Below, one piece after another: positions 6,575 through 30,137 of a stretch of DNA of 64,000 nucleotides (positions are counted from its first letter, which is position 1; each line of letters starts with the position of its first letter). Position numbers and translations under genes: made by a program. The notes under the pieces are model-generated. The model was not told the origin of the DNA and did not search any database. It saw nothing but the letters and a program-made list of their open reading frames with translations. The stretch comes from a virus (taxonomy: Duplodnaviria > Caudoviricetes), in the IMG/VR virus record IMGVR_UViG_3300017951_000001, positions 1-64,000 of that record. The stretch is one strand, 5' to 3'.

Positions 6575-6669
6575 CCACGAAAAGCCAAGATTTTCGCCCC
6601 GTCGAACGGCGTGCCGGGTTATAATTTCCCGGGGCACGTTGCCCCGGAAAACCGCGGAAATACGCTTAC

Positions 6670-7173
6670 ATGCTTACAAAACAAACGACGGAACGATTGT
6701 TGTTCCTTCTGAATGATTTCCTCCAACATTACGTGAAGGAACAACACGAAAATACGTTCTGGCTTCATGCCGGAATGCATGAAATTCAAAGTTACGATGC
6801 GGAATGGCAACAATCCTTGCGTCAACAAGGGTTCATTCGGCATTTTACGCCACCGGGGCAAACTTACGGGTTTTGTCGTCCCCCGTCTACCTACCATTTG
6901 ACGCCGCATTTCTGGCGGACTGTACGCCCATGGGTTGACATCGTTCATCAACTCATCGTGAACGTATTCATCGACCACTACCCGGATGCCCTTCACGACA
7001 AAAAAAATATTTCCCAAAAATGGTTAGTCTACAGATTGACTTCCGTGCTTGGGACATTGAAAATCGTGACCGCTTGGGCCGATGCGCTATCCGAGCCTAA
7101 TGCGCTCCCCGTGGTCCCGGAACTTCACACCGACGTTGAACCGACATTCAATTGGCTAACCAACAACCCGTAA
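6670..7173 (+). CDS. Hypothetical protein
   Basis: 167 aa; strong CAA/GAA codon bias. Confidence 0.6.
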   Translation: MLTKQTTERLLFLLNDFLQHYVKEQHENTFWLHAGMHEIQSYDAEWQQSLRQQGFIRHFTPPGQTYGFCRPPSTYHLTPHFWRTVRPWVDIVHQLIVNVFIDHYPDALHDKKNISQKWLVYRLTSVLGTLKIVTAWADALSEPNALPVVPELHTDVEPTFNWLTNNP

Positions 7174-7184
7174 GGACAACAACC

Positions 7185-7787
7185 ATGCAGACATTTGTAC
7201 CTTTCGAAAGCAATTTTAACCAATGTGCATTCGTCTTAGACGACAACCGACTCAACAAGCAACGTTCCGAATGCCAAATCATCCTCAAAACCCTTCTCGG
7301 TTTGTATGACATCGAAACGGGAAAGGGTTGGCCCCACCATCCAGCTACGCGCATGTGGCTCGGGTATGAACCGGCGTTGTTGGGATACAGCATCGCCATC
7401 GCCCTCGAATGGGAGACACGGGGCCATGCGGACACTACGCTTGAATGGTTCGTGAACCTTGCTGACGACAAGGGGTTCGACATCGAAAACTACGAAATGC
7501 CCCACTGGTGGGGCGGCGGAATTCATGCTTCTCACCGAAGCAACCTGATGGAGAAAAACCCCGAATATTACTTGCGTTGGTGGACCGACAAGCCGGGTAT
7601 GAACTACGTGTGGCCATCGGGCAAAGAACGCCTCACTCCGCGTATCCCGCTCAAATCCGAACTTTGGGCTTGGATCAAAACGGGCGAAGGCACAACCATC
7701 GGCGATGGTGCTGACTACTTTGGCATTACCCCTCTCGAATTCATCCGAATCCGGGACCAAAAAAACACTGACCGTAAGGGGGCGTAA
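7185..7787 (+). CDS. Pyrimidine-dimer DNA glycosylase-like (DenV/MSMEG_6728 family)
   Basis: MQTFVP...LDDNRLNKQRSEC.QI...GWPHHPATRMWLGYEPAL...EWETRGHADT...HASHRSNL signature; AAGGA RBS. Confidence 0.8.
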   Translation: MQTFVPFESNFNQCAFVLDDNRLNKQRSECQIILKTLLGLYDIETGKGWPHHPATRMWLGYEPALLGYSIAIALEWETRGHADTTLEWFVNLADDKGFDIENYEMPHWWGGGIHASHRSNLMEKNPEYYLRWWTDKPGMNYVWPSGKERLTPRIPLKSELWAWIKTGEGTTIGDGADYFGITPLEFIRIRDQKNTDRKGA

Positions 7788-7789
7788 AA

Positions 7790-8251
7790 ATGAATATGAA
7801 CCACTGCGCTCAAAGAATCGTCAACTGCCCATTGTTCCGTTGGATCCCTGGGATGACTACAATCGCCGGCAAATCACTAATCGAATATTCAGAAGATTGC
7901 CCACAACAGGTTTGGTTGTTGGATGAACACGGCTTGGACGGGCCACAAATGGACCGAGTCAACGCGGACTCCATCTTCCCGGACCTGTACGATGAACACA
8001 CCGTCGATTGCCTTCTCAAAATTATCAACGACCACATCAAACCTTCAAAGGTGGTAATCGACCACCACGACTCGTTGTGGTACTTCGATGTTCCGTTAGT
8101 TTACCGCCGACTCGGCGCGAAAGCGGCACCGCCGTTGCGTTCAACTACGAACCCATTCATCGACTTGTATACGTTGACGCGAGCCGAACTGTTGATGTAC
8201 GGATTCGAAAATCTCTGGGCTTTCATCCAAAAGGGGCAGGGCAATGAATAA
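7790..8251 (+). CDS. Hypothetical phage protein (paralog of 6024..6413)
   Basis: CPLFRWIPGM...PDLYDEHTVDCLL motif. Confidence 0.62.
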   Translation: MNMNHCAQRIVNCPLFRWIPGMTTIAGKSLIEYSEDCPQQVWLLDEHGLDGPQMDRVNADSIFPDLYDEHTVDCLLKIINDHIKPSKVVIDHHDSLWYFDVPLVYRRLGAKAAPPLRSTTNPFIDLYTLTRAELLMYGFENLWAFIQKGQGNE

Positions 8252-8768
8252 GCTACAAACATCGTACGATATTCTCGATTCAATCCGAGAAACGAGCATG
8301 ACTCTCGCTGAATTGTCGGAAGATACAGGACGAAGCGAGAAAACGCTCGAAAAATGTATCTATCGTTTGTTAGAAAAACATGCGGTAAGGCGAACTCAAA
8401 TCCCATCCTTGACCCGTAAAGCCATATACCGGTACACTATCGAACCATACGGGTTGAACTTGTTGTGGGCTTGTGAAAGCGGATTCGTTGTGTCCCGAAT
8501 TGAGTCAACAGCAAGGTTACTTTTATTCATGCGTCAGAAACAGCGAACAACGTTCAACGAGTTAGCCGATGTGTGGCCATTTTCGGATACTTCGCTTCGA
8601 AACCGATTAGCTGGGTTTCAACGTTTGGACTACATTTGTTCCGAAGTCTCGCACATCGGTTCTCAAGAACTTGCATATGTACTCACCGACAAAGGCACAG
8701 CCGTCATCGACCGTTGGCCTGGATTTGACCCAAAAACTCCGGAAAATCACCATGTTCTCATTCATTGA
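8244..8768 (+). CDS. Tandem winged-helix DNA-binding protein
   Basis: Two wHTH-like repeats (TLAELSEDTGRSEKTLEKCIYRL; TFNELADVWPFSDTSLRNRLAGF...YVLTDKG). Confidence 0.65.
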   Translation: MNKLQTSYDILDSIRETSMTLAELSEDTGRSEKTLEKCIYRLLEKHAVRRTQIPSLTRKAIYRYTIEPYGLNLLWACESGFVVSRIESTARLLLFMRQKQRTTFNELADVWPFSDTSLRNRLAGFQRLDYICSEVSHIGSQELAYVLTDKGTAVIDRWPGFDPKTPENHHVLIH

Positions 8769-9555
8769 TGGACGCGAAACCCTTCCACGCCACCCGACGA
8801 AAAAGTTTGATACCCGCGCTGTTTCAGAACTCTGCGGGGGCGTGCTGCACCAAACGGCTGGTGGCGACAGCGCGTATAAATGCGCGTTGTACCACAGCGG
8901 TCCAAACCACGTTTCGGCTGATGGTTGCCCAGGTTTGTTGTATACGTTCTTCATTGAGATGGATGGAACTGTGTATTGGGCACATGACCTCGATAAACGT
9001 ACTTGGTCGCAAGGAGGAAATGGTTCCCCTGTTCCCGGGACGTCTGCCAACGGAAATTTCCTCGCCATTTGCCTCGGCGGGGATTTTGACGGACCCACGC
9101 ATGAAGGGAAAAACGGGCATCCGACTTTCGATCAATTCCATGCTGCGCTTTGTTTGTGGGGGCATTTGACCGGGCGGAGCAAAGACGCCCGCTTACCCGA
9201 CGAACTTTGGCAAGCTGTGCCATGCCCAACGGAATCCCTTTACGGGCATGACTCTTTCGGAAAAGCAAATTGTCCTGGAACGAGCGGAACAACGCTCGTT
9301 AACGCTATCAGGCATCACCTTGTTCTCCCCGAACCCGGAGCAACCGTGTCCGAAGGCGGAACTCGAATCGAAACTGACCGTGATTGGCAACTCGCACTTC
9401 AAAAAGCTGGGTTCAACCCGGGCACTATCGACGGTGTTTGGGGTCGCAATTCCCAGGCTGCTTTTTGCGAGTTTCAACGTTCCCGTTCGAACCTTGCGAA
9501 CGACGGGATCCGAGGGCCGATGTCCAAGAACGAACTCGAAAAGGCGATTCAATGA
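8752..9555 (+). CDS. Endolysin: N-acetylmuramoyl-L-alanine amidase with C-terminal peptidoglycan-binding domain
   Basis: VLHQTA...YTFFIEMDGTV...LAICLGGDF...LYGHDSFGKANCPG; C-terminal WQLALQKAGFNPGTIDGVWGRNSQAA. Confidence 0.85.
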   Translation: MFSFIDGRETLPRHPTKKFDTRAVSELCGGVLHQTAGGDSAYKCALYHSGPNHVSADGCPGLLYTFFIEMDGTVYWAHDLDKRTWSQGGNGSPVPGTSANGNFLAICLGGDFDGPTHEGKNGHPTFDQFHAALCLWGHLTGRSKDARLPDELWQAVPCPTESLYGHDSFGKANCPGTSGTTLVNAIRHHLVLPEPGATVSEGGTRIETDRDWQLALQKAGFNPGTIDGVWGRNSQAAFCEFQRSRSNLANDGIRGPMSKNELEKAIQ

Positions 9556-10664
9556 AAATTCTGGTGACCGGCGCAGCCGGGTTTGTCGGAAGTCACCTCG
9601 TTGATCATCTGCTCGAAGACGGTCACGAGGTTGTGGGTGTCGACAATTTGCTTACGGGCAATGTCGAAAACCTCCGCTCGGCTTCCCGAAATTCGAACTT
9701 CAAATTCTACAAATGCGACCTGACGAAAGTGTTTCCGGATGCGATTGAACGGTTGCCTTGGGGTTCGCATGATTACCACCGGATTTACCATTTGGCTTCG
9801 CCGGCATCGCCGCGCCATTACATGCGAAATAAACTCAATACCATCCGGATTAACTCGGTTGTTACTGATCAATTAGCAACGCATTGGCCTGCCGCCAGGA
9901 TTCTGTTCGCTTCGACGAGCGAAATCTATGGAGACCCGTTGGTTCACCCGCAGCCCGAAACGTATTGGGGCAATGTGAACCCGATTGGGCCTCGCGCATG
10001 CTACGATGAAGCGAAAAGATTGGGGGAAACTATCTTATGCGCGCATCGAGACGATAACAAAGTTGAAATTCGAATTGCTCGCATCTTCAACACTTACGGC
10101 CCGAGGATGGACCGTTACGACGGGAGGATGGTTCCGAACTTCATCACGCAAGCGATTTCAGGAAAACCATTGACAATCCACGGGGGAGGCGAACAAACCC
10201 GGTCATTGTGCTACGTTACCGATACAGTCGAAGCGTTGATAATGGTCATGGAAAGCGAAAGTTCCGAACCGTTCAACATCGGGACCGAAGACGAACGCAC
10301 AGTCAATGGCATGGCCGATGCCATTATCCAAAAAGTTGGAAATGAAAATACCTTTGTCCGGCACCCTCGCATGGTTGACGACCCCCGACAGCGGAAACCA
10401 AACACAATGCGGATTCGAACTGTATTGGGTTGGAATCCGAAGGTTTCATTCGATGTGGGGATTCAGCGGACTATTGAGTGGTTCAAAACGGTGATGGAGC
10501 AAGATAAAGCTCCGATGTTTGTTGTCGACAACCAAGGCAATCGCATCGCCCACGGCACGAAAGACTTCTGCAATGGATTTCTTCACGGTTTAGACCACGC
10601 ATTCCAATGTAAAATGGAAGCGACCGATACTACTGTGGTCTCTGGCCTTTCATTGGTGAAGTAA
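9552..10664 (+). CDS. UDP-glucuronate decarboxylase (UDP-xylose synthase), NAD-dependent epimerase/dehydratase family
   Basis: MKILVTGAAGFVGSHL, YHLASPASP, ASTSEIYGDP, YWGNVNPIGPRACYDEAKR, RIFNTYGPRM, QTRSLCYV, DDPRQRKP are UXS-type motifs. Confidence 0.85.
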   Translation: MKILVTGAAGFVGSHLVDHLLEDGHEVVGVDNLLTGNVENLRSASRNSNFKFYKCDLTKVFPDAIERLPWGSHDYHRIYHLASPASPRHYMRNKLNTIRINSVVTDQLATHWPAARILFASTSEIYGDPLVHPQPETYWGNVNPIGPRACYDEAKRLGETILCAHRDDNKVEIRIARIFNTYGPRMDRYDGRMVPNFITQAISGKPLTIHGGGEQTRSLCYVTDTVEALIMVMESESSEPFNIGTEDERTVNGMADAIIQKVGNENTFVRHPRMVDDPRQRKPNTMRIRTVLGWNPKVSFDVGIQRTIEWFKTVMEQDKAPMFVVDNQGNRIAHGTKDFCNGFLHGLDHAFQCKMEATDTTVVSGLSLVK

Positions 10665-10666
10665 AT

Positions 10667-10960
10667 ATGCCGCTTTATGAGTACCAATGCCTTGTTTGCG
10701 AATCAAACTTTGATCGGTTGGTTCGAAATGCTGACGTTCCGAACCCCATTTGCGACTCGTGCGGGGGAGACACTGAACGGAAAATCAGCGTACCCGCCAT
10801 CATATTCAAGGGTTCCGGTTGGGCGAGCGACGGGTATTCCGGAGGAAGCAGCATCGACGAAGCTCGTTCCGTCATCAACGACATGTGCCGGATGAAAGGC
10901 GTTTCGTCCGATACGTTGGAACGCACCGAAACCAAAGCGCGAGGCGGGTCCGTTGACTGA
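10667..10960 (+). CDS. FmdB-family zinc-ribbon protein
   Basis: MPLYEYQC..C...C..CGG....ISVPAIIFKGSGW. Confidence 0.8.
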   Translation: MPLYEYQCLVCESNFDRLVRNADVPNPICDSCGGDTERKISVPAIIFKGSGWASDGYSGGSSIDEARSVINDMCRMKGVSSDTLERTETKARGGSVD

Positions 10961-11531
10961 TATTGGGCCTGTAAACCATGCTTTGGGAGGGCGGGATCTG
11001 TTAGATCGGTATTACACCCCTGCCCCCGTTGCGCGGGCTTGTGTGGGGTTGTTGCGCATCGCCCCGCGTGCGCGGGTGTTGGAACCATCATCGGGCGGTG
11101 GCGCGTTTCTGGACGCGATTCTCGCGGCTCAACCGACGGCTGTGGTGCGTGCGTTTGATGTTGACCCCAACGCACCGTCGGCTGCGCGGTTCAAGGTCGA
11201 ACGGCAGGACTTCCTCCGGTATCGCCATCGGGGACCGATGTTTGACTGGATTATCGGAAACCCACCGTATTTCGAAGCCGAAGACCATGTGCGTAAAGCT
11301 TTACGCACGGGCAAGAACGTAGCTTTTTTATTGCGGTTGGGGTTTGCTGAATCCCAGGCACGGGTTCCTTTTTGGAAGGGGATTGGCAAATGTTTACGTG
11401 AAGTCCGGGTTTTGGCTTCGCGGCCTTCGTTTACGAATGGCGGAACCGATGCGACGGCGTATGGCTTTTTCATTTGGGCTCACAATCACCGGGGTCCGTC
11501 TCGAATTGTTCCTTGTTGGGATTTCAAATGA
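10953..11531 (+). CDS. Orphan N6-adenine (amino) DNA methyltransferase
   Basis: DRYYTP, VLEPSSGGGAF (motif I), IIGNPPY (motif IV), FLLRLGF, RPSFT...TD...Y..FIW. Confidence 0.8.
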   Translation: MTDIGPVNHALGGRDLLDRYYTPAPVARACVGLLRIAPRARVLEPSSGGGAFLDAILAAQPTAVVRAFDVDPNAPSAARFKVERQDFLRYRHRGPMFDWIIGNPPYFEAEDHVRKALRTGKNVAFLLRLGFAESQARVPFWKGIGKCLREVRVLASRPSFTNGGTDATAYGFFIWAHNHRGPSRIVPCWDFK

Positions 11532-12115
11532 CTCGCACTGAATTATTAAACTTAATTGCTAACTATATTTATGCCGAAACGTACCTTGAAATCGGAGTCC
11601 AACGGGGCGTCAATTTCCAAAAGGTAAACGTCAAACACAAAACGGGTGTAGATCCCGATACGAACTCGGCGGCTACAATCCACAAACCTTCGGATGAATT
11701 TTTCGGTTCGTTATCGAAAACTACTACTTTCGATTTAATCTTTGTGGATGGATTGCACCTTTGCGAACAGGTTATTCGCGATGTTCAACATTCCATCGAA
11801 CACCTTTCCCCTGGTGGGGTGATTGTTTGCCACGACGTCGATCCGCCGACCAAACAAGCGGCTTCGCGAACGCTTTGTTCGGGTGTTTGGTGCGGCGATG
11901 TATGGAAAGCATGGTTGTATTTACGCACGCGGCTTGATGCTGAAATGTTTTGCGTTGACACCGATTTGGGTTGCGGAGTCATCATTCCATCGGGCCGGAA
12001 CAACCGGTCAGATGCTGAACCGGCGAATTGGGAACAATTCCGAGCGAATCGCCGGTCGTTATTGAATTTGGTTCCTACGAACTATGCAATTGAACGGTTT
12101 GCAAACCGCGAGTAA
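11528..12115 (+). CDS. Class I SAM methyltransferase (Methyltransf_24-like, sugar O-methyltransferase type)
   Basis: YLEIGV..G, FDLIFVDGLH..EQV..D, GGVIVCHD, WCGDVWKA. Confidence 0.75.
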   Translation: MTRTELLNLIANYIYAETYLEIGVQRGVNFQKVNVKHKTGVDPDTNSAATIHKPSDEFFGSLSKTTTFDLIFVDGLHLCEQVIRDVQHSIEHLSPGGVIVCHDVDPPTKQAASRTLCSGVWCGDVWKAWLYLRTRLDAEMFCVDTDLGCGVIIPSGRNNRSDAEPANWEQFRANRRSLLNLVPTNYAIERFANRE

Positions 12116-12124
12116 AATCAATGC

Positions 12125-12322
12125 ATGCGACGGTTTTTCGTCTATGCATTTTTTTACTTACTGCTTTTGCTTATCATCTGTTCATTGATGGCAATGGTGG
12201 CTCGCACTTTCCACAACTTCCACCGTTCTTACCGTGATATGCGCCAACATCAAGCGATGTACGACGCAGCCGATTCGTTGATGTCAAACGCAATCCGATC
12301 GTACACATCGGCTAACCGGTAG
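12125..12322 (+). CDS. Small membrane protein
   Basis: Hydrophobic N-terminal FFVYAFFYLLLLLIICSLMAMV. Confidence 0.45.
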   Translation: MRRFFVYAFFYLLLLLIICSLMAMVARTFHNFHRSYRDMRQHQAMYDAADSLMSNAIRSYTSANR

Positions 12323-13914
12323 TGGTCTGCGGCGTTGCCTTCGACCCATCGGATGCGGCTGCGTTCTTCGTCGAGGATTCGGACGGAAGCTCGCATTTGA
12401 TCGGACCACCCAAACACAGTGAACACATCGGAAGGCCATTTCCGATTCCCGTTTCGTATGTCGTCGAACGTTGTATCCATCACCTGCGTTCGGTCGACCG
12501 AAACGACTCGTTCGGTCCAATTTTGCTTCATCCCGTATTTTTGTGAACCAATACGAGGCGTCGGGTGGAACCGGCAGAGCCATACAGCGCATCGGGTCGA
12601 TGTCGTCAACGCGTAATCCCGAAGCTCTTTTGCTTTTCGCGTTTCGGGCATTGCATCGATTACGCACACGTCAACGTGATAGCGTTCGATCATCGATTGA
12701 ACTTCATTGAATGACCTGCATGCGCCGACCCACAACGCCCGCCGGGTAAGGTTTCCGTTGTCGTCGTATTCGGCAGTCGAAATGGAAATATTTAAAATTG
12801 TTCCAACGTCGACTCCCATCGTTATCGTCTGATCCCGGTAGTGTTTTCCGCCGACATAGTCCAAGTCCGGGCCGGTTGCACATTCGAATAACATTTCATA
12901 TGAAATCCGAGCACCCGAATGTTCGAACGGTGCGCCCAAAACTGAAGTGTAAAACGTTGAAAGCTTCGCCGCGTCGGATTGGGCTTCGGTCCATTCGGCG
13001 AACAGCGTTTGATACGATTCATCCAAACAATCCAACCGAGAAATCCAATACCCTCGGCGGGAACGAGTGGGGTGTTGTGCTACCCATGCTCCGGGTTTTG
13101 CTCGCCGGTCGAAGGGTTTATTGCAAAACCGACAAACGGCGCGAGGGTCTTCGTGGTCGTGGCGTTGCGTATCCCGAAGTTGCCATTCCCCTCCGTCCGT
13201 TTTTTGGACGACGTTTTCGAACCAGTCAATCGGTTGCCATTTCGAACAACGCGAGCACCGATGAAACCAACGGCGACAATCCGAGGCATCGTATACTTTT
13301 GAAATGCCGGTGCGAGGCAAAGTCGGGTTACCCAACCGGAACATTTGCGGTGAGTCCGAAGCGCGAAGCCGGTCCCGTGCTTTTGCGAGGTTTTGTGGGT
13401 CGCATTGGTCGTACTCGTCAACGATCAAAGTGTCTGCTGAAAATTCTAGAAAATCTCCAGCGGTGTTCGACCCCAGGAACATGATGGCTCCCGAGCCGAA
13501 TCGCTTCAGTTTCAAGTTCCCCGGTTTGCGATTCGTTCGCCCAGCCGACGTATCAATCCCAGACAACACCCGATACATCGGGACGGATTGCAAAAGCGGG
13601 TTGATGCGCTGTTGAACAAACCGATCTCGGATTGTGTAAGTTGGAAGCACGTATGCGGCGATTCGGGATTGTTGACCAGCCATATGAATAATTAACTGAA
13701 TAAATAATTCGGATAATCCCGTTTGAACTGCTTTCCGAATGTCCGCTCCTTCGAGTTTGGGGAGGTCGCGGTACAGTTCAATCAAGTACGGCCGGTGTTT
13801 GAAGGACATGGGTTTGCCGCGCGTGTTTTGATGCGTCGTAAGCGAAAGCCCAATTAACGGTTCATCGTGAACAATTTGGGAAAGCAAATAGTGGTACGGG
13901 CCTGCGGGGTCCAT
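12250..13914 (-). CDS. terL: Terminase large subunit, lambda GpA-like
   Basis: RKAVQTGLSE Walker A variant, LIVDEYD Walker B, LGNPT motif, CSRC/CRFC zinc ribbon, MGVDVG nuclease Asp, C-terminal ADHYRLADVY. Confidence 0.88.
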   Translation of the reverse strand: MDPAGPYHYLLSQIVHDEPLIGLSLTTHQNTRGKPMSFKHRPYLIELYRDLPKLEGADIRKAVQTGLSELFIQLIIHMAGQQSRIAAYVLPTYTIRDRFVQQRINPLLQSVPMYRVLSGIDTSAGRTNRKPGNLKLKRFGSGAIMFLGSNTAGDFLEFSADTLIVDEYDQCDPQNLAKARDRLRASDSPQMFRLGNPTLPRTGISKVYDASDCRRWFHRCSRCSKWQPIDWFENVVQKTDGGEWQLRDTQRHDHEDPRAVCRFCNKPFDRRAKPGAWVAQHPTRSRRGYWISRLDCLDESYQTLFAEWTEAQSDAAKLSTFYTSVLGAPFEHSGARISYEMLFECATGPDLDYVGGKHYRDQTITMGVDVGTILNISISTAEYDDNGNLTRRALWVGACRSFNEVQSMIERYHVDVCVIDAMPETRKAKELRDYALTTSTRCAVWLCRFHPTPRIGSQKYGMKQNWTERVVSVDRTQVMDTTFDDIRNGNRKWPSDVFTVFGWSDQMRASVRILDEERSRIRWVEGNAADHYRLADVYDRIAFDINESAASYIA

Positions 13915-14108
13915 TTTTCTCCTTCCTAGAAAACTAGGGTAACACGAGCGGGGGGATAGCGTGTAGTGCTAGAAAATGCGGAGGTGGGGTGCTCCAAATA
14001 TGGGCCCTGCGCCCGAAAGCCATGGTAGACCCCCCCTTCTCACGCGGTCCCCGAAAACGACGGTTCAACCCCCACAATATTGAATGCGCACCCCCGTTGG
14101 CACCCCTG

Positions 14109-14160
14109 GCATTGGTTGCCGGCTGCGGGTAGGGGTGTGCGCGATATGCGCAACCAATGC
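14109..14160. other. Candidate cos/packaging cleavage site: 11-bp inverted repeat with 30-bp spacer
   Basis: GCATTGGTTGC (14109-14119) and GCAACCAATGC (14150-14160), about 200 bp upstream of terL, at the edge of the AG/CT-free tract. Confidence 0.35.
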
Positions 14161-14530
14161 GCGTTTGGTTGCACGGCGACGGGCAACGCAACCACCCCGC
14201 GTGCGTGGGATTCAAAAAAACCCCGTTGCGCGGCCGATAATTTTGAACAATGCAACCGCGCAACATGGGCGCAACGTGCGCGGGTTGACCGACCGAACCC
14301 CCGCACCGGTACGGATCCCCATGATCGAACCATTAACGGCGTTAAAACGCGATTTTCACGATCACCCCATTGAGCCCCCGTAAACGGCCCCACAACGGCC
14401 CGCGCGGTTTCCACACCCGAACGTGTGACCGAACCCCGTTCAACGCCCGTACGGTACCGGGAACGGCCGGGAAACACCCGATCCGGCGGGGTTCACCAAC
14501 CCCCGATCCGGGGGCCGAACGGCGGCCACG

Positions 14531-14556
14531 AAAAAACCCCGGGCCGAAACCCGGGG
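14531..14556 (-). terminator. Intrinsic terminator 2 downstream of the 14632 gene
   Basis: CCCCGGG-CCGAAA-CCCGGGG stem, with an A6 run giving a U tract on the minus strand. Confidence 0.7.
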
Positions 14557-14587
14557 CGATATTGCCGATTGTTGGGGTTGAAACGGG

Positions 14588-14615
14588 AAAAACCCCGGGG
14601 CGGCGTGCCCCGGGG
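14588..14615 (-). terminator. Intrinsic terminator 1 downstream of the 14632 gene
   Basis: CCCCGGGG-CGGCGTG-CCCCGGGG stem plus A5 run. Confidence 0.7.
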
Positions 14616-14631
14616 CGGTCCGAACGTGCGG

Positions 14632-15633
14632 TTACACGACACCGGCCGCAACGTCGGCGTCCGACCGGGGATCGTCGGTACCGGCAACGGCCCGCGCGGC
14701 GACCGTGTACCGCCATGTCACGCCGTACGCGCACCCCGGGCACCCGTACCGCCGGGGATCGGCGGGGGCGTTGACATCGTACGCCGCCACCGTTGCCCCG
14801 GGTTGATACGTGCGGCCATTGTCGCCGGTGTCGGCGGGGATCGCGGCCGCGTCCAACACGGCGGCAACGGCGGCCGCAACGGTGGCGACCGAATCGGACA
14901 TCACAACCCACCGGGAACGGGCGGTACGGTACGCGCGGGTTTCGGGCATACGGCGCCCGTTTTCACCGACGATCGCGCGCAATTCGATCATGTTGTCGCG
15001 TCGTTTGGTGTACGTTCCGCCCATAACGCCCATCAAACCCCGGATAACGGACGACACGCGGACATCATCAACCCACACGACAACGGGAACGGGCCCCGCC
15101 GCCGGGGCCGCCGTGGGGGCCGGTGCCGGGGCCGTGGGGGCGTCCACCGTTGCCGCCGGGGCCGTGGGGGCCGGGGCCGTGTCGGTGGCCGTGTCGGTGG
15201 CCGTGGGGGCCGTGGGGGCCGTGTCGGCGACCGGGGCCGGGGCCGGGGCCGGTGCGGTCAACGCCGCACGATCGGCGGCGGCGGCCGCGCGGATCCGGGC
15301 CATGGCGGTCAACGGGTGGTCGGCCGTGTCGTCGGCGGCCGTGTCGTCGGCGGCCGTGTCGTCGGCGGCCGTGTCGGCGGTGTCGGCGGTGTCGGCGGTG
15401 TCGGCGGTGTCGGCCGTGTCGGCCACGGCGGCAACGGCGGCCGCAACCCGGCGGGCCGTTGCGGCGATCGTGCGGGGGTTGGTGTCGGCAACGGCGGCGG
15501 TGATGTCGGCGGCCGTTCCCGTGATCCGGTTGCCATCGATCCCGATCGGGGCACCGGTGTTGATGGTGTGATCGGCGATCGCCCGAACGGCGGCGGCGGT
15601 TGCGGTGATGGTGATGGTGATGGTGTTGGCCAT
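14632..15633 (-). CDS. Low-complexity Ala/Thr/Asp/Pro-rich early protein (333 aa)
   Basis: Start MANTITIT at 15633 after a CAACCACAACC leader; ADT and AADDT tandem repeats; globular-looking C-terminus with CPGC; followed by two terminators. Confidence 0.6.
   Translation of the reverse strand: MANTITITITATAAAVRAIADHTINTGAPIGIDGNRITGTAADITAAVADTNPRTIAATARRVAAAVAAVADTADTADTADTADTADTAADDTAADDTAADDTADHPLTAMARIRAAAAADRAALTAPAPAPAPVADTAPTAPTATDTATDTAPAPTAPAATVDAPTAPAPAPTAAPAAGPVPVVVWVDDVRVSSVIRGLMGVMGGTYTKRRDNMIELRAIVGENGRRMPETRAYRTARSRWVVMSDSVATVAAAVAAVLDAAAIPADTGDNGRTYQPGATVAAYDVNAPADPRRYGCPGCAYGVTWRYTVAARAVAGTDDPRSDADVAAGVV
15325..15422 (+). repeat. In-frame tandem repeats (15-bp GTGTCGTCGGCGGCC x3; 9-bp GTGTCGGCG about x5)
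   Basis: Read directly; encode AADDT and ADT on the minus strand. Confidence 0.85.
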
Positions 15634-16094
15634 GGTGGGGTTCCCCCGGTTGTGGTTGTGGTTGTGGCGCCGACCCACGGCGGGCCGGCACCGATGCAAT
15701 AACGACCACGGGGTTACCGTGCATTATCCGCCGGGAACGCCGATAATGCCCGAAACGGGGGCCGGCGGGGATCGGTTCACATAACAAACGACACGCGTCA
15801 CACCGGGCCGCTGTCGCCGAAAACCGGATTTCAAATAACGTTTTACGCGTAGTCCTCACCCGAAAACCCGAACCCGGGGCAACCGGATCCGGGTTAATCG
15901 GGTCCGATCGTCCAATTGTGGCGGTCAAACCCCGACAAAGCGGCATTCGGTATCCGATTTCCGCCCTGGACCCGATCACAAATGACACGTGATCGTTTCA
16001 CATTTGTCACAAAACGGGGCCACTGAATGCCATTCACTGACGATCGTTGACGATCGGGGTGCAACGGATCGTTGCGATTTTCGGGATCGGCACC

Positions 16095-16958
16095 GGCCGA
16101 AAACCCGGGTTCAATCGTTGGACCGATCGGCCGAAAACGGGGGTTCAATCGTTCGGGACGTTCGGGGGCAACCGGCCGAAAAACGGGGTTCAATCGTTCC
16201 CGGCCACCGGCCGAAAATGGGGGTTCAATCGTAACGGCCGGATCGGCGGGCCGGCCGAAAACCGGGGTTCTAACGTGGAGGGCAAGCAACCGAGAAAGGG
16301 GCTTCAACCGTGAGTCGCTAGCACTGGTATGGCTATTGCAGCGGGTTGCAACAGACATGCCAGCCTAACACTGGTATGGCTATTGCAGCGCTACAAAAGA
16401 CATGCCAGCCTAGCATTGGTATGACTGTTGCAGCGCTACAACAGACGTGCCAAGTCGAGCCTTCTGCACAGAGCATGCCAGGCATGACTGTTGCAGATGC
16501 AGCCATCGGCCGATTCGTGGCGTTCTCCCGTGAGCGGCTGGATCGCACGGTTCAACCCCGCGATCCAGGGATAGGCCGAGATGCCGCGTCGAACCACGGG
16601 AAAGGACGAGCCGCCGAGAAGGGTGGTTGAATGCCGCATGCTGGGCAGCCGGCGAGAACAAGGGTTCAACCACGGGAATAAGCCAACCGGCGAGAAGGGG
16701 GGTCTCACGCGGCTTGCCAGCCGATCGGCGAGAAAGGGGGTTGCACCGGGTTGCTCGGGCAGCCGGCGAGAAGGCGGGAAGACCCCCGACAACCAGCCGA
16801 TCGCCGAGAAGGGGGGTCTGACCGTGCATCTCGGGCAGTCGCCGAGAAGGGGGGTTCTACCGGGATCCCACCAGAAGGGGGGTTCTACCGGCACTTCGTC
16901 GAGAAGGGGGGTTCTACCGTGCATCTCGGCGACTGCGCGAAAACAAGGGTTCTACCGT
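16095..16958 (+). repeat. Dispersed direct-repeat family, about 15 copies of a 22-25 bp motif with 35-45 bp period
   Basis: Left copies GGCCGAAAA-N-GGGGTTCAATCGT at 16095, 16129, 16174, 16209, 16253; right copies GCCGAGAAGGGGGTTCTACCG-like from about 16290 to 16958. Confidence 0.85.
16324..16453. repeat. Three tandem 38-40 bp imperfect palindromes, period 45-47 bp
   Basis: e.g. TTGGTATGACTGTTGCAGCGCTACAACAGACGTGCCAA (16416-16453); copies at 16324 and 16371; partial fourth copy near 16475. Confidence 0.85.
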
Positions 16959-17773
16959 AAGCCCTTTTTGCTGCCGGCAGCCGAAAGTGAAGATTCCCGG
17001 ATGAGGAAAAGTGTGCTTTCCCGGGGTTGGAATTCCGGGGAAAGTTGAGTTCCTAAAACCCAACGGAAAGTAGTTGTCGCAAAACTAAACTTTGAAAGTG
17101 AAAGAAAAAGTGAGTTGAAAAGTAACCTTGCAGAATCAGTTCGCAGTTCAAGTTGAAACTTGACTGGAGTTGAGGCACGACTTCGAGTTGAGTTACGAGT
17201 TGGAAGTGCACGACTTCCAGCCCGAAGTTCAGTTTGAAAGTCCAACCTGCAAGTTGTGGAAGTTCAACTTGAAAGTCCAATGGAGTTTCGAATCGAGTAA
17301 CTTTTCGAGTTCCTTTTGAAGTGACTTCGAGTTCCATAAGTGGCACTCGAATCAGGTTGATTTTGTTTTCGCTTGCACATTCCGCGTATGCAATGCGAGT
17401 CGCGATTGAACCTTACTGCCCGCACTTGCCTTTTGCATACCAATGGCAGTAAAATCAAAAGGTTGCTTTACCGCACTCGACGAGAACGGGAAGCGAGTTT
17501 GAAGGCCCGGGAGTGTGCAGGCGAGTCCGTACTTGACTGACAACTGGAGTGCAAAGCCGAGTTCGATTCCTGCTCGAATTGGTTTTGGGAACGACTTGAT
17601 GCAGCGACTCGACGGAGGTCTGGACTCGGCCGGAAACCGCAGGTTTTAATCCGATTTGCTTTTCGCTGATCGGTTTTCCGGGAACCCGGCCGAAGTCGAG
17701 TTCGAGTTCCGAGTCGCAGTCAGTTTAGAAGCCAAAAGCGATACTGGCTTTTAGGACGGCACCGGAAAGTAGT

Positions 17774-17816
17774 CATAGTTTCTAGCGGTCATAGTTTCTA
17801 GTAACCATAGTTTTTA
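17774..17816 (+). repeat. CATAGTTTCT array 1 (3 copies, 16-bp period)
   Basis: Copies at 17774, 17790 and 17806 (the last is CATAGTTTTT). Confidence 0.85.
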
Positions 17817-17875
17817 GGGACTCATTTTTACTTTCATCTGAAATTCCTTTCGACTAAAACCTTTGTTTGAAGCAA

Positions 17876-17901
17876 AGCAAAACCCGGGCATAACGCCCGG
17901 G
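17876..17901 (-). terminator. Intrinsic terminator
   Basis: CCCGGGC-ATAAC-GCCCGGG with A-rich flank, downstream of 17915..18169. Confidence 0.65.
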
Positions 17902-17914
17902 CCTGCGACGCAGG

Positions 17915-18480: not shown

Positions 18481-18663
18481 TTTGATTTTCCTCGCGGTTG
18501 TTGCGGGGAGGCTCATCCCCCCCGCGATCACGTAACGCGGGAGTGGTTATCGTGCAACCACTTTGATCGGAAGTGCAATTTCAACATAAGTACTCATTGG
18601 CTTTGGCTTCCACTGAAAGACTAATCGGCGAAGACCCCGGACAATTGGGCGCGATCGTCTGGT

Positions 18664-18692
18664 TTGCACGTAACACGCTACACGGTTACGTG
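18664..18692 (+). promoter_or_regulatory. Sigma70-like early promoter TTGCAC-N17-TACGTG
   Basis: Same spacing and -10 box as promoters at 19668 and 40694; followed by hairpin GTGCGG-GGGA-TCCGCAC and CAACCACGGAGC leader. Confidence 0.6.
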
Positions 18693-18735
18693 ATCCATGT
18701 GCGGGGGATCCGCACGCACAACCACGGAGCAAAAA

Positions 18736-18840
18736 ATGAAAAACCCGAATTTGAAAATTGCGCTGGAAATTGCGGCCACATGGGCTGCGATGTGGGTCCT
18801 GTTGTACGCGGCACAAATCGCTCGCATCATCGGGGGCTAA
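18736..18840 (+). CDS. Small hydrophobic peptide (34 aa)
   Basis: MKNPNLKIALEIAATWAAMWVLLYAAQIARIIGG directly after the GGAGC leader. Confidence 0.5.
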   Translation: MKNPNLKIALEIAATWAAMWVLLYAAQIARIIGG

Positions 18841-18903
18841 CATGATTTCGCTTTCCCGAAACCAAATCATCAATGACGCTTCCGCTTCGCGTGGACGTCG
18901 CCG

Positions 18904-19308
18904 ATGATTCGCGTCCAGCTAATCGACCTGCACCGTGTGCCATATTACGGCCGGGTGCAGGTGTATGACGATGACGTGGTTTGCTACCACGTCGTCGGCA
19001 GGGACGGGGCCGGCTTGACCGGCCCTTTTCGCTACGACACCCGAGACGAAGCCATTCGCGCTGCAATCCGTTGGGCTGTGGTAGCCGTTTACAACAATTG
19101 GGAGGGGACCGTCATCGCCACTGCGGTCGGGTTGGACAAAACGACTAACATCGCCGACCAGTACGGTGCGCTGTGCGCTTTGGCGCGCAACCCGAGACTC
19201 GCTGATGCGCAGGACGTGTTCAAGCTGGTTGAGGAAAATCCCGACATCACTCTCCGCGGAAATGGCGGAGCCCTTGAAATCACGCTGTGGGTTGATGACC
19301 ATGAATAA
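18904..19308 (+). CDS. Hypothetical early protein
   Basis: 134 aa, overlaps next gene. Confidence 0.55.
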   Translation: MIRVQLIDLHRVPYYGRVQVYDDDVVCYHVVGRDGAGLTGPFRYDTRDEAIRAAIRWAVVAVYNNWEGTVIATAVGLDKTTNIADQYGALCALARNPRLADAQDVFKLVEENPDITLRGNGGALEITLWVDDHE

Positions 19309-19606
19309 GCCGAAATTCCGAAAAACCTCGATCGGGGTCGACCCCGAGGACTTTGGCAGGAACAGGAAAGTTCTGTTCATTGCCACAGCCAATGAAACTG
19401 CCAATGAAACTGCGCAGTTCGTAGACTGTGACGCGTTGTACTACGCGTTCAACGGACAACGCCGTGAGCGGCTTCCCCGCTGCGCCGGATGCCGTTTGCC
19501 TTTGGCTACCAGCGTGCGGATCACAATCCCTGCCCTGGGTGGAACAGTCAATTGTGAATGTTGGCTATATGGCTTGCCCGTGGAGGGTTTGCCCGAAGAA
19601 CTGTAA
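19301..19606 (+). CDS. Hypothetical Cys-containing protein
   Basis: MNKPKFRK start; CAGC and CEC motifs. Confidence 0.5.
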   Translation: MNKPKFRKTSIGVDPEDFGRNRKVLFIATANETANETAQFVDCDALYYAFNGQRRERLPRCAGCRLPLATSVRITIPALGGTVNCECWLYGLPVEGLPEEL

Positions 19607-19667
19607 TCAACGGTTCTAACCCGGTTAGCCCGCGGATTAACCGGTTTTTAAGACCAAAAGATAGGGT

Positions 19668-19696
19668 TTGTCCGATAACGCTGATCGTGTTACGTG
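19668..19696 (+). promoter_or_regulatory. Sigma70-like early promoter TTGTCC-N17-TACGTG
   Basis: Exact 17-bp spacing; leader CACAACCACGGGAGC before ATG 19743. Confidence 0.6.
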
Positions 19697-19742
19697 GATC
19701 GTGGGTCGGCGGTCGGCCCAAAACACAACCACGGGAGCAAAA

Positions 19743-20123
19743 ATGCGCTATGTATTGGTGATGGAATTGGACAATTGGGAGGATCCCGCTGCATTCGGAA
19801 CCCGGTGTAGCGAAACCGGCGATGAAATTTTGCTGGGTTTTTTGACCCAGCGGGATGACGGGCTGGTTACCATGCGGGACGCGCAGCCCATCCCGGACGG
19901 AATCGGCTACCCCACGTTGGGCGCAGCGATTGACGCCGCATCCGGGTTCGCAGCGTTTTGGGGCGAAAACGCTTTCATGGATGAACCGATGCATCCCGGA
20001 ATGCAGCGCGGCCGCGCACGCGCTGCGGCGCGCATTTGGGATACCCAAAACAACATCGTAGCGGAATACGCTATGACGTTCGCGCCCGCAACCATCCCCA
20101 CAACGAAATCGTGGGAGGACTAA
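19743..20123 (+). CDS. Hypothetical early protein
   Basis: MRYVLVMELDNW after promoter and leader motif. Confidence 0.65.
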   Translation: MRYVLVMELDNWEDPAAFGTRCSETGDEILLGFLTQRDDGLVTMRDAQPIPDGIGYPTLGAAIDAASGFAAFWGENAFMDEPMHPGMQRGRARAAARIWDTQNNIVAEYAMTFAPATIPTTKSWED

Positions 20124-20597
20124 CCACGGCATGAAGCCTGCGGTCAATCCGCAGGTTTCATTTTACCCCCGAAATGCAGGACTTTTGGAACTGTACTGGG
20201 CATCAAAGGACTTTGAAAGCCCGAAAAGGGCTTTGACCACAGTGAAAAGGGCTTTGGGTCGCAGCGGAAAGGCAGAAGTGCTTTCAACGAACCTTTCACA
20301 GCCGCAGCCGATTTTGCCTGCAAAGCCGCAGGTTCCCAACCAAAGCGCTTTGCACAACCAAGGGCTATTCCCGGAGCGCTACGGTTGACCAACTAAAGGT
20401 TCCCGAGTGAGTGCCTTTCCCGAACTGGCAGATTCCCGGGCGAGATTCCCGAGTGCTAATTTCCCACAGTTTGGATTTGTTTCCGCCGAGGACTTTATTT
20501 TCCCGGGGCCAGTTGTTTGCCGAATTCATTTTGTGTTGACCGAACACAGAACACGGAACAACAGAAGCGATCAGTGCTATACATTATTTGATTTCTT

Positions 20598-22218: not shown

Positions 22219-23655
22219 CTATGACCTATTGAAAGCATACACGAATTGCCTGCCGCCTCGGACTCGAATGCTTCCTCCGAACCTCCGAACCATTCGGCTT
22301 GCTCTGGACATGGGACAACTTTGGGCCCCGAATGGACCTTTACCATTCACTTTGAGTTTCATTAGTGCTTTGTAAAATTCAGTAAACGGCTGACCGTGGT
22401 GTGCGATCAGGCATTCAGCGAAAGCTTCTTTGTTCCCATCTTTCGGAGTCCAAACGCGCTCTGCATCTAACCTTTCGAACAACTCGCTGTATTGTTCTGC
22501 CCAAAGACGAGAATTGAAGGTTGAACGCACGTAATCGCTTACGACTCTTCCCCAGTGTTTTCTTTCTCGCTCAACCGTCAACAATCGCCTCAACATGGCT
22601 TTGCACTCTGAAGCATCATCGAACAGGTAAGGGTAATTGGTTGTGGCTCGGCCCGTGATCTCGGGGAAAGTACAATCGTTGGGAGCCACCAACGGCTGAC
22701 CCAATGCCATTGATTCCACTGCGCTGATGCAGAACGTCTCATACATCGAGTGCGTCACGTTCAAGTCGCATCCACGAAGTGCTTCAAGATATTCGTCGCG
22801 TGTTCTGACGAGGCAAATCTCTGCCCAAGGATATTGAGCAAGATATGCAGTGTTTTCTCTGTTGGTGTTCATGTAGCGAAGTTTGAACTTTACTCCTTCC
22901 TGGTAAAGTTCATCCAACACCTGCATGGTGTCTCGCCAGCGTTTATACCCCTGCAATCTGTGATTGTAAGCAATTACAGGCACTTCATTGCCGGTCTCGT
23001 GGTACTCAAGTGATTGTTCAAGTGTACCTAAATAAATCCGGCTTCCAGATTGCTCAATTTTCTGAACTAGGTCTGGATGAAGTGCCTCCCGGCAGTTGTC
23101 GAGAACAAGAGTCCGAGTGTAATCGGAGTTGTAGACATTCCAGTCGGCCAGGATTGTTCCATTCAGTTGAGTCCACCAAACGTTCGCCATAGCGTCGACG
23201 TTGTAGGGAAGGGATTTGTGAATGGTGTAGTTGTGTGCTGCAACGACAACAGGTTTGAACGTATCGTTGTAGGAACTGTCCCCACTGAACTTGATGTTTC
23301 CTGCCATCTCTACGAGATTGCACCAAGCTACATCAATTGCTACGCTCCGAAAGAGTTTGTCGTACCAGATCGAGTCAAAGTGAACAGCCCCTCCGTGCCG
23401 ACGGGGATTCATGCGCTGTGAGACCCGCGTCACATTAGGCAACGAGAAAAAGCCGTCGTCGTCGTATTTGAACTTGCTCTTTGAGTCAGGGAAAGGAACC
23501 CAAAAATGCCAGTCGGGTCTTACCTCTGCCATTGCGCGGACAAAAGCAGAAGTAAGGACATAGTTACTGTCACTGTTTACTTCTGCTTTCGAGAACATGT
23601 ACTGGCACCAAACTTGGAGCCCGCCAACTCGGTCTTCCACCCATTCCAACGTCAT
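22219..23655 (-). CDS. GT-B fold glycosyltransferase (GT4-like)
   Basis: IAYNHRLQGYK, SMYETFCISAVESMALGQPLVAP (E-x7-E), about 70-aa basic C-terminal extension. Confidence 0.8.
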   Translation of the reverse strand: MTLEWVEDRVGGLQVWCQYMFSKAEVNSDSNYVLTSAFVRAMAEVRPDWHFWVPFPDSKSKFKYDDDGFFSLPNVTRVSQRMNPRRHGGAVHFDSIWYDKLFRSVAIDVAWCNLVEMAGNIKFSGDSSYNDTFKPVVVAAHNYTIHKSLPYNVDAMANVWWTQLNGTILADWNVYNSDYTRTLVLDNCREALHPDLVQKIEQSGSRIYLGTLEQSLEYHETGNEVPVIAYNHRLQGYKRWRDTMQVLDELYQEGVKFKLRYMNTNRENTAYLAQYPWAEICLVRTRDEYLEALRGCDLNVTHSMYETFCISAVESMALGQPLVAPNDCTFPEITGRATTNYPYLFDDASECKAMLRRLLTVERERKHWGRVVSDYVRSTFNSRLWAEQYSELFERLDAERVWTPKDGNKEAFAECLIAHHGQPFTEFYKALMKLKVNGKGPFGAQSCPMSRASRMVRRFGGSIRVRGGRQFVYAFNRS

Positions 23656-24248
23656 TTTGCCTGCACCTTTAACTTCAGTCCGTGTTCGTTCGCGAAGGCG
23701 ATAACAAGCGATTTGAGTTGTGGGTCGTTCGCTAAATCAGGAGGCCCCGTAAGAATAAACGAAAAGGACTTTGCATCAGCGAATTGTGTATCACTGGCAA
23801 AGTCCCCGTCGTCCTCGTCGTCTTCATCAAACAACTCGAAGACCGAGTCAGCGTTTTGCATGAGGTCTTCGAGTTCTTGTGTTGAGAACCCGAGGTTGTG
23901 CAGTTCCGTTGAGGATTCTTGGAGATCGGAAAGGATCTTACTCAATGTAGGGTCATCCCACATTGCTAATTCGCCGATCTTGTTATCCGCCAATGCAAGT
24001 GCTTTTGCTTCATCAACTGTCAGATCCAAGAACCGAACAGGAACCTGTTCCATACCCAGAGAAAGCGCTGCTTTGAGTCGCGTATGACCTGCAATGACCA
24101 TGTTGTCTGCACGGCGAGCAACAATCGGTGCAGCAAAGCCGAATCTCCGGATTGAGTCTGCGACAGGTTCAATGGATTGTTGATTGATTCTCGGGTTTTC
24201 GTCCCAAGGGACTAACGAATTGGGATCGACGAATTCTGCTGCTTCCAT
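23652..24248 (-). CDS. ParB/Srx N-terminal domain protein 1
   Basis: LVPWDENPR...SIRRFGFAAPIV...VIAGHTRLKAA...ALALADNK; ATGA-coupled to the GT. Confidence 0.85.
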   Translation of the reverse strand: MEAAEFVDPNSLVPWDENPRINQQSIEPVADSIRRFGFAAPIVARRADNMVIAGHTRLKAALSLGMEQVPVRFLDLTVDEAKALALADNKIGELAMWDDPTLSKILSDLQESSTELHNLGFSTQELEDLMQNADSVFELFDEDDEDDGDFASDTQFADAKSFSFILTGPPDLANDPQLKSLVIAFANEHGLKLKVQAK

Positions 24249-24347
24249 TGGTGACACCTCATTGCGTTTCTGGGGACGTTGCCGATTCACGGGCACCGAA
24301 CCATGGACCCACACCGGAAAACGCCTGATACATGCGTTTCTGAAACC

Positions 24348-29510: not shown

Positions 29511-30137
29511 TCACGAATAGAAAGAACCGAGCATTGCTTTTAAGACGGACTGCGCGGAGGTTGAGTTAACCTTGATCTGGTACTCGCGAACCTTTTTCTG
29601 CCATGCTTCATACTGCTGTTGATTTACTTCGAACTTCAAGTCCCCAATACGGAACTTGTGAACTTTGGATTGTTCCGTCTCGCTTACCTCACCGTTCGAC
29701 GCGTGTCGTTCTTCTTCTTCCAGATCTTGGTCTGAACTTGCGTCTTCGAGGCCCGAATATGAAAGCCAATTTTCATCAAGCCCTGTGAATGGAACCAATT
29801 CGCTGTCCATGGTCTCGATATATTCGGAAAGTTCTTCGAAATTCCACTCGCCGTCGTGGTTGTTGTCTCGCATAGCCACGGTGACTGCTTCTGCACGAGA
29901 ACCTTGGAACCAGACCACTGGAACTTCTTCCACGCCCATGCCGAGCAGAACTTTCAACCTTTGGTTCCCGCCTATGACGACGTTCTTTCCCTCGTCGTCT
30001 CGCCAAACGAGCAAAGGCTTGTAAAGGCCGAATCGACTCAATGATTCAGCTAACTTGTCCAAGTCTTCGGGCTCGATGAAACGCGGATTCTCGTCGAATG
30101 GAACTAAACTTGAAATACTGACTTTTCCGGATTTCAT
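29511..30137 (-). CDS. ParB/Srx N-terminal domain protein 2
   Basis: LVPFDENPR...SLSRFGLYKPLLV...VIGGNQRLKVL...RDNNHDGEW. Confidence 0.85.
   Translation of the reverse strand: MKSGKVSISSLVPFDENPRFIEPEDLDKLAESLSRFGLYKPLLVWRDDEGKNVVIGGNQRLKVLLGMGVEEVPVVWFQGSRAEAVTVAMRDNNHDGEWNFEELSEYIETMDSELVPFTGLDENWLSYSGLEDASSDQDLEEEERHASNGEVSETEQSKVHKFRIGDLKFEVNQQQYEAWQKKVREYQIKVNSTSAQSVLKAMLGSFYS

Follow-up and report, generated by a model that had tools for sequence, protein, structure and literature searches.

Avoidance of restriction sites and of protospacer-adjacent motifs (PAMs) is a known property of phage DNA; it concerns specific motifs, comes at low cost and is absorbed by synonymous codons. Replication origins of the iteron type (lambda ori, P1, R6K, RK2) carry direct repeats that are asymmetric, measure about 20 bp, share a conserved core and are classically spaced at about 22 bp, and lambda packaging runs from a site upstream of the large terminase gene, terL, into terL. 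Phage T5 offers the precedent for a repeat-laden non-coding region at the edge of the first-entering DNA: its injection-stop (iss) region comprises 1,662 bp of non-coding sequence with one direct repeat in nine copies, inverted repeats and palindromes, and a short early unit of T5 is flanked by inverted copies of one element separated by a few kb (bioRxiv 10.1101/866236). Position-specific avoidance of a motif in the first-injected region also has a precedent (PMC12455610), and viral enzymes can be directed to the dinucleotide AG, as in the chlorovirus pair in which Nt.CviQII nicks R^AG and M.CviQII methylates AG (PMC3017599, PMC3299994). Here we describe a family of short repeats in a tailed phage (Caudoviricetes; IMG/VR record IMGVR_UViG_3300017951_000001, of which positions 1 to 64,000 constitute the window referred to below) that lies at both borders of a segment nearly devoid of AG and of its complement CT. 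On balance we favour the reading that the copies, about 19 in number, are putative phased protein-binding sites bracketing an AG/CT-free cassette, and that the copies within the cassette were probably rewritten under a ban exerted at the level of the DNA.

The genome of this phage is 76,130 bp long, in a circularly closed assembly whose first 124 bp recur at the contig end, and is of the siphovirus type (a tape measure protein of 1,640 aa, a large terminase of the lambda gpA type and three tRNAs). The AG/CT-poor island has sharp edges, at about 14040 and 16270. Only 11 AG/CT sites were observed inside it against about 240 expected; the symmetrised odds ratio of AG/CT drops from 0.74 in the rest of the genome to 0.03 here (14132-16269), and the longest AG/CT-free gap spans 1,438 bp (14373-15811), the largest outside the island measuring 77 bp. 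Genome-wide, AG/CT stand at 0.72 of expectation, the range in relatives being 0.84-1.16. The depletion is graded at 6600-14000 and 18500-20150, with observed/expected ratios of 0.43-0.61 for genes flanking the island and 0.7-1.0 for distant genes. In what follows, repeat copies of the main array are called L when they lie to the left of the right-hand edge and R when they lie to its right. The features on which the argument rests are these:

12250 to 13914, minus strand: terL, large terminase gene of the lambda gpA type (PF05876, E = 1e-22; phrog_675, E = 3e-79)
14019 to 14046, minus strand: left-border copy just outside the island, R-type, AG and CT present; GAGAAGGGGGGGTCTACC; 21.4 bits
14040 to 16270, strand not applicable: AG/CT-poor island, 68% GC versus about 50% for the genome; holds the L-type copies
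14048 to 14075, plus strand: left-border copy just inside the island, AG/CT-free on an R-type backbone; CGAAAACGACGGTTCAACC; 20.2 bits
about 14536 to 14612: two hairpin/T-run terminators, downstream of the island gene
14632 to 15633, minus strand: island gene, for an acidic protein with A/T/D/P-rich repeats; coding periodicity in the GC content of the three codon positions (GC3 0.85 > GC1 0.70 > GC2 0.65)
16094 to 16279, plus strand: L array, five copies starting at 16094, 16128, 16173, 16208 and 16252; CGGCCGAAAA(C/A/T)NGGGGTTCAATCGT
16287 to 16314, plus strand: transitional copy on an R-type backbone; CGAGAAAGGGGCTTCAACCGTG
16324 to 16495: central dyad-symmetric core, made up of seven 17-nt half-sites, TGCAAYAGNCATRCCAG, of a second family with no relation to the L and R repeats
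16507: weak twelfth R copy
16573 to 16961, plus strand: R array, eleven copies; approximate consensus CGAGAAGGGGGGT(T/C)(C/T)NACCG

The repeat family was defined with a position weight matrix (PWM) used to scan both strands of the whole genome (152,454 positions), 20 genome shuffles serving as the null (maximum 18.8 bits). The unit measures about 24 letters, and 17 plus-strand copies scoring 18.7-35.7 bits were found at 16094-16961. Together with two further copies at 14019-14075, this makes about 19 over 2.9 kb, where the original prediction had counted about 15. A matrix trained on the R copies alone ranked the L copies 10th to 20th of all positions, directly behind the training set. Since an R-only matrix recovers the L copies as the best other matches, L and R belong to one family, as had been proposed from the letters of the sequence, and the possibility that the two groups are unrelated is removed. 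Some L and R units also have a common flank, CCGATCGGC. The second half of that proposal, namely that the family is AG/CT-free to the left and AG/CT-containing to the right of about 16270, was borne out as well. The L array (16094-16269) contains no AG/CT, against 20.9 +/- 3.6 expected (the minimum in 5,000 shuffles was 8), and the whole 232-bp run, spacers included, has none against 27.6 expected. The R array has a normal complement (48 against 53.1 expected) and the central segment of about 190 bp a normal to high one (30 against 23.8). The R array and the central segment have observed/expected ratios of about 1.0-1.2; at 16270, therefore, the most and the least depleted DNA of the genome meet.

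The anatomy of the copies is that of a phased array. R copies start at 16573, 16611, 16649, 16687, 16725, 16763, 16801, 16839, 16867, 16896 and 16934; eight of them hold an exact 38-bp register over 266 bp without an indel, after which the spacings are 28, 29 and 38 bp. Identity is 0.68 in the R core (columns 5-24) versus 0.44 in the spacers (permutation P = 0.0075), and within the site roughly one helical turn separates two conserved blocks. The combination of strict register, conserved core and drifting spacers indicates a phased protein-binding array. L copies are near-identical among themselves and are spaced at 34, 45, 35 and 44 bp; Tandem Repeats Finder (TRF) describes them as 2.3 copies of a 79-bp super-unit ending exactly at 16270. 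No hairpin per unit and no internal dyad were found in L or R units; the L array folds with z = +0.4, and the z of -2.7 for the R array is owed to one long-range inverted repeat. An RNA element was therefore rejected, there being no hairpin in each unit and no Rfam hits in the region. Rejected too was a coding reading, the 38-bp period being no multiple of 3 and the overlapping open reading frames (ORFs) reading the units in shifting frames.

Column by column, L and R differ at positions 2, 8, 22 and 26 and, more weakly, at 11 and 25. Only two of these columns are related to AG: column 8, where R has G and L has A, and column 11, where the G of R is replaced in L by C, A or T. The original prediction had placed the differences on the AG and CT positions; this holds for columns 8 and 11 and fails for columns 2, 22 and 26, which are fixed yet bear no relation to AG/CT, column 22 (C versus T) being as fixed as column 8. 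The enrichment of L/R differences at AG/CT columns that an alignment was predicted to reveal was not found (Fisher P = 0.45-0.57). Such a test is partly circular, as a copy inside an AG/CT-free zone must differ at these columns. Several finer points of the description also had to be amended. The change from TTCTA to TTCAA does not separate L from R: at column 20, where conservation is lowest (0.2 bit), the R copies themselves vary (T 4, A 4, C 2, G 1). The consensus TTCTACCG given for the R side describes the four rightmost copies and not the remaining ones, and GAAAAC is not confined to one side, since it occurs outside the island in copy 16934. What does set the island copies apart is the pentamer CGAGA, invariant in the eight R copies in exact register and CGAAA in every island copy. 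The ban thus altered the best-conserved block of the site and not a free position.

The two best matches outside the main array in 76 kb are the copies at 14019 and 14048; the next match, at 16.2 bits, is within the null range. When the local 2.2 kb was shuffled 2,000 times with its dinucleotides preserved, a single hit of this kind had P = 0.0035 to 0.0075, and two hits were obtained in 0 of the 2,000. The pair (14019-14046 and 14048-14075) is arranged head to head, 105-160 nt upstream of the terL start codon, and the half-site scores of the 14048 copy are R-like, not L-like. Both borders of the island thus present the same configuration: the copy on the island side is free of AG, and its neighbour beyond the edge bears it.

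Between the two arrays, the half-sites of the central core alternate strictly in orientation every 22-23 bp or so (seven matches, against 0.87 expected in the whole window) and form overlapping palindromes centred on AGCGCT with a 45-bp tandem period. At roughly two helical turns, the interval between them recalls operators, parS-like sites or a cleavage site, and a parS-like nature of this family is a possibility. For the L and R repeats themselves, a ParB/parS or sopC-type centromere was rejected: the units have no internal dyad, and the three ParB_N genes lie 7-14 kb away. These three genes encode paralogous proteins with a ParB N-terminal domain (23652-24314, 29511-30137 and 30134-30850, the latter two adjacent), which are candidate binders of one of the repeat families. 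A CRISPR array was likewise discarded, on account of spacers of 0-17 nt, degenerate repeats and the absence of recognisable cas genes.

Avoidance of AG/CT went on after the L units had duplicated. Since then, 9 substitutions and at least 5 indels have come to separate the two 79-bp units; one third of the possible single substitutions in them would create AG or CT, and random histories of 9 substitutions remain AG/CT-free in only 2.5-3.4% of cases (P = 0.025-0.034). At column 11 the L copies acquired C, A or T, never G, and where they have A, column 12 is C. In the island as a whole the loss is made up by several dinucleotides (odds of 1.8 for AA/TT, 1.58 for AT and 1.3 for AC/GT, and only 1.10 for CC/GG). 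This spread, in combination with 68% GC, fits neither a G>A sweep, as by deamination, nor an A>G sweep, and a mutational sweep in either direction is thereby ruled out as the cause of the AG/CT loss. The original prediction had also argued for selection over a single mutational process, from the types of substitution seen; the conclusion is upheld on the other grounds given here, that argument not being its main support. As the ban rewrites non-coding repeat copies, it acts on the sequence of double-stranded DNA and not on codons or RNA, and the sequence pattern supports the view that selection operates on the DNA, probably with non-coding functional sites included.

That the L array merely reflects a founder, i.e., one AG/CT-free 79-bp unit amplified in tandem, which would carry no information on selection, appears very unlikely and is disfavoured. 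The tandem structure ending exactly at 16270, the near identity of the L copies and the non-significant column enrichment are what such an event would leave; it conflicts, however, with the divergence that stayed AG/CT-free after duplication, with the absence of G from column 11 (and the restriction of A to positions preceding a C), with the independent AG-free copy at 14048 and with the lack of AG/CT throughout the 232-bp run, where spacers are included. A more substantial alternative, though still an unlikely one, is a mosaic joint: the cassette and the L array would have been imported by recombination from an AG/CT-free phage or module, with a crossover in the GGGGTTC core, and L and R would be orthologous arrays of two lineages. 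Copy 16252 is a clean chimera, its 5' half being L-type (28.0 bits) and its 3' half non-L (0.0 L bits, against 10-12 in the other L copies). The 79-bp tandem array stops at this base too, so the edge is a discrete joint in the GGGGTTC core, produced either by the end of a duplication or by a crossover. The differences unrelated to AG/CT (columns 2, 22 and 26) switch at this very point; the island has its high GC content in a genome of 50% GC, motif copies stand at both borders, the island gene is an orphan, and the rearrangement of terL relative to relatives (see below) marks the area as recombinationally active. Against the mosaic, the high GC content runs on into the R array (62-72%) and the flank CCGATCGGC is common to L and R, so that the module defined by composition extends beyond the zone that was purged. 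The graded depletion in neighbouring genes (0.43-0.6) and the genome-wide value of 0.72 point to a pressure within this genome, and no AG/CT-free donor is known. A mosaic would, moreover, only move the question to the donor, because selection would still be needed there.

Two further alternatives accept that the repeats bind a protein and differ as to which. In one, L and R would be iterons bound by a phage initiator, with the AT-richer DNA at 16962-17400 as the unwinding element. The original prediction had likened the array to iterons or to terminase-binding sites, and the likeness in phased protein-binding anatomy stands; membership in either class is not borne out. There are 17 same-strand copies with a conserved core, in the manner of the 17-22 bp direct repeats typical of iterons, and beside these asymmetric repeats of about 20 bp lies a stretch that is richer in AT and laden with repeats. 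The cumulative GC skew peaks at about 17-20 kb, the two conserved blocks about one helical turn apart recall the sites of initiators with two winged helices, and the phage encodes a protein with two tandem winged helix-turn-helix (wHTH) domains. On the other hand, there is no excess of DnaA boxes (2.4 kb hold 4 sites with one mismatch, versus 1.1 per kb genome-wide), the AT-rich patch does not stand out in this genome, and the GC-skew extremes also track gene orientation. No initiator gene is adjacent, the neighbouring ORFs matching no family and the replication genes lying at 32-47 kb. The spacing of the copies is out of helical phase (38 bp in R, about 3.6 turns; 34/45 bp in L), and other arrays, of CATAGTTTCT, presumably adjoin the primase-helicase gene, which we count against the iteron reading. 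On these grounds an origin here is rather improbable. Equally improbable is an operator array through which a regulator would control the island gene and terL, the location at the borders reflecting nothing more than the intergenic control regions. The head-to-head pair just upstream of the terL ATG, the position of the L array 460-680 nt upstream of the island gene start and the presence of helix-turn-helix (HTH) and wHTH proteins in the phage would be in keeping with such a role, but known operators use far fewer sites than the 17 phased copies seen here, which occupy 870 bp and for the most part lie over 900 bp away from the nearest start codon; nor does any copy overlap a sigma-70-like promoter. 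For want of such sites among the copies, and of a recognisable phage RNA polymerase, a set of tandem promoters for an enzyme of that kind was rejected as well.

The remaining features of the locus, to which the comparison with known systems refers, are the following:

1304 to 2047: TerS (small terminase) candidate (phrog_6299, E = 8e-6), about 14 kb from the arrays
16962 to 17904: rest of the gene-free region, AT-richer (36-52% GC), with several short repeat families
17880 to 17904, minus strand: terminator-like hairpin at the right end of the gene-free region, serving the upstream minus-strand genes

Together, the L array, the dyad core, the R array and the AT-richer repeat zone make up a gene-free stretch of about 15.7-17.9 kb, the largest in the genome. 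It resembles the T5 iss region in being a large, repeat-packed non-coding region (about 2.2 kb here), with motif copies flanking the island in the same way; its several repeat families (L/R, dyad half-sites and others) lie next to a self-contained one-gene unit. It differs in that T5 has paired DnaA boxes, none being enriched here, and in that the T5 region lies in a mapped terminal repeat and T5 has no dinucleotide purge; pre-early genes of the A1/A2 type were not recognised in the present phage. Short repeats near terminase genes, with a motif pair directly upstream of a gpA-type terL, bring to mind the R sites of lambda cosB and the pac boxes of SPP1, and a site of the cosB/pac type is possible by analogy. 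Lambda has 3 R sites, however, and SPP1 few box repeats, all beside terS (PMC4737164), as opposed to 19 copies over 2.9 kb here. Nor are the copies beside a small-terminase gene, only terL being adjacent, and their position is not kept among the related terminases in the 30 loci compared (see below). With the iterons of lambda ori, P1, R6K and RK2 the arrays have in common a fixed spacing beside an AT-richer stretch; the 38-bp spacing and the want of an initiator and of DnaA boxes separate them. As regards avoidance in the leading region, AG/CT is a word missing from one delimited region and present elsewhere, and this region is short, variable and codes for an orphan, possibly anti-defence, protein. 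Known cases involve a motif of 6-8 nt and a known enzyme, whereas the word concerned here is a dinucleotide, excluded over 2.2 kb on both strands, and a conserved site has been rewritten. The comparison with Nt.CviQII and M.CviQII lies in virus enzymes being able to read AG; the phage, for its part, encodes a putative methylase-like protein (10953-11531).

The comparison with relatives covered 30 loci with a TerL identity of 39-61%; the closest TerL relatives, P0002 (76%) and P0003 (75%), found only in ENA, were not among them. None of the 30 has an AG/CT-free gap exceeding 73 bp, a repeat array or a comparable gene-free region upstream of terL, and a ParB gene next to terL was not found among them. 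Searching viral contigs for the degenerate motif yielded a single hit (in L002), attributable to chance, and no position in 32 loci reaches 17 PWM bits. A scan of JGI metagenomes with TerL recovered only a relative at 50%. In relatives with a TerL identity of 49-61% (L006, L009, L027), a small ORF, terL, portal and the genes as far as capsid are contiguous and co-oriented. In the present phage terL is displaced by about 11 kb from the homolog of the small ORF (about 2040-2340), the TerS candidate and the portal gene (which starts at about 1129 on the minus strand and crosses the contig junction), and the upstream position is taken by the island and the arrays. Part of the rearranged order is seen in L007. 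Two genes upstream of terL, the canonical relatives carry an adenine methylase of the MT-A70 family (L006, 9042-9674).

On the reading that we favour, a sequence-specific DNA-binding protein would act on the phased repeats, with the head-to-head pair at the left edge of the cassette and the 17-copy direct array crossing its right edge. Inside the cassette CGAGAAG would have become CGAAAA(C/T/A), G8 being changed and the TTC-A part kept free of CT; the same ban would have shaped the gene, promoter region and terminators of the cassette, and would be maintained by selection up to a discrete point within one repeat copy. Several observations weigh against this reading. L copies are tandem duplicates of a 79-bp unit and hence not five independent witnesses; the independent rewriting events are few (about two at column 8 and two to four at column 11), and the column enrichment is not significant. 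The candidate binder with two tandem wHTH domains (8244-8768) has one marginal homolog among 1.84 billion representatives; its only PDB sequence hit is a weak one to an archaeal wHTH regulator (E = 0.006), and single-sequence AlphaFold gave a mean predicted local distance difference test (pLDDT) score of 39.5. A spacing of 38 bp is not the usual one where an array is bound along a single face of the DNA, the TerS candidate is remote from the arrays, circular closure leaves the assembly without physical genome ends, and the motif, the gene-free region and the island recur in 0 of the 30 relatives (TerL up to 61%), which deprives the reading of comparative support.

As to the function of such a locus, we tentatively consider, by analogy, that the L array, the dyad core and the R array may form a cis-acting packaging/ejection element, the likeliest of the roles considered but one that falls short of being probable. 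The composite locus would lie at or near a virion DNA end and delimit a short leading segment without AG/CT, in a combination of the T5 injection-stop region with leading-region motif avoidance. Were the direction of packaging that of lambda, the island, just upstream of terL, would be packaged last and ejected first. The segment might be kept clear of AG/CT because a host enzyme reads these words before the phage can defend itself, or because the phage's own AG-directed modification must be kept off the leading segment. The methylase-like protein mentioned above is a minimal adenine-methylase-like protein of 192 aa with an NPPY motif; its Eco57I/N6_Mtase hits are below the Pfam threshold, and, as no target-recognition domain is apparent, its sequence specificity could be very low. 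With such a protein encoded by the phage, the self-modification reading is equally open. A further variant, to which we give little credence, makes the repeats the cis delimiter of a "clean window": bound arrays would set the extent of first-entering or exposed DNA, or block a translocating AG-directed enzyme (a phage modifier or a host nuclease), and the 2.2 kb between the borders would have to carry no AG/CT. R and L copies would then be the modifiable and non-modifiable versions of one site, allowing the same protein to tell the two sides of a border, or modified and unmodified DNA, apart.

A few observations concern the surroundings of the arrays. The island protein matches no Pfam or PHROG family, and a homolog at E <= 0.01 was not found. 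About 180 nt upstream of the island gene start, at 15816-15835, stands a weak half motif of L-like character, GCCGAAAACCGGATTTCAAA, whose score is below the PWM null. Another candidate for an origin is a set of three 16-bp tandem copies of (A/G)TCATAGTTTCTAG at 17768-17817, at the right-hand limit of the gene-free region. At 7152-7787 the phage encodes a pyrimidine-dimer DNA glycosylase domain (Pyr_excise, E = 4e-13) like that of T4 endonuclease V, the phage being of marine or salt-marsh provenance.

Known motif avoidance is paid for in synonymous codons (see above); in this phage the exclusion of a word of two letters is strict enough to have altered the best-conserved block of a conserved non-coding site. 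The locus amounts to a natural experiment within one genome, in which the same site occurs with and without AG/CT a few hundred bases apart, and it points to a constraint that would act on DNA and be maintained by selection, with an end located to within a few bases. Oligonucleotides of the L and R types are ready probe pairs for the repeat-binding protein and for a reader of AG/CT. If the arrays do delimit the first-entering DNA, two-step entry in the style of T5 and evasion of defences in the leading region would extend to an unrelated lineage of marine siphoviruses.

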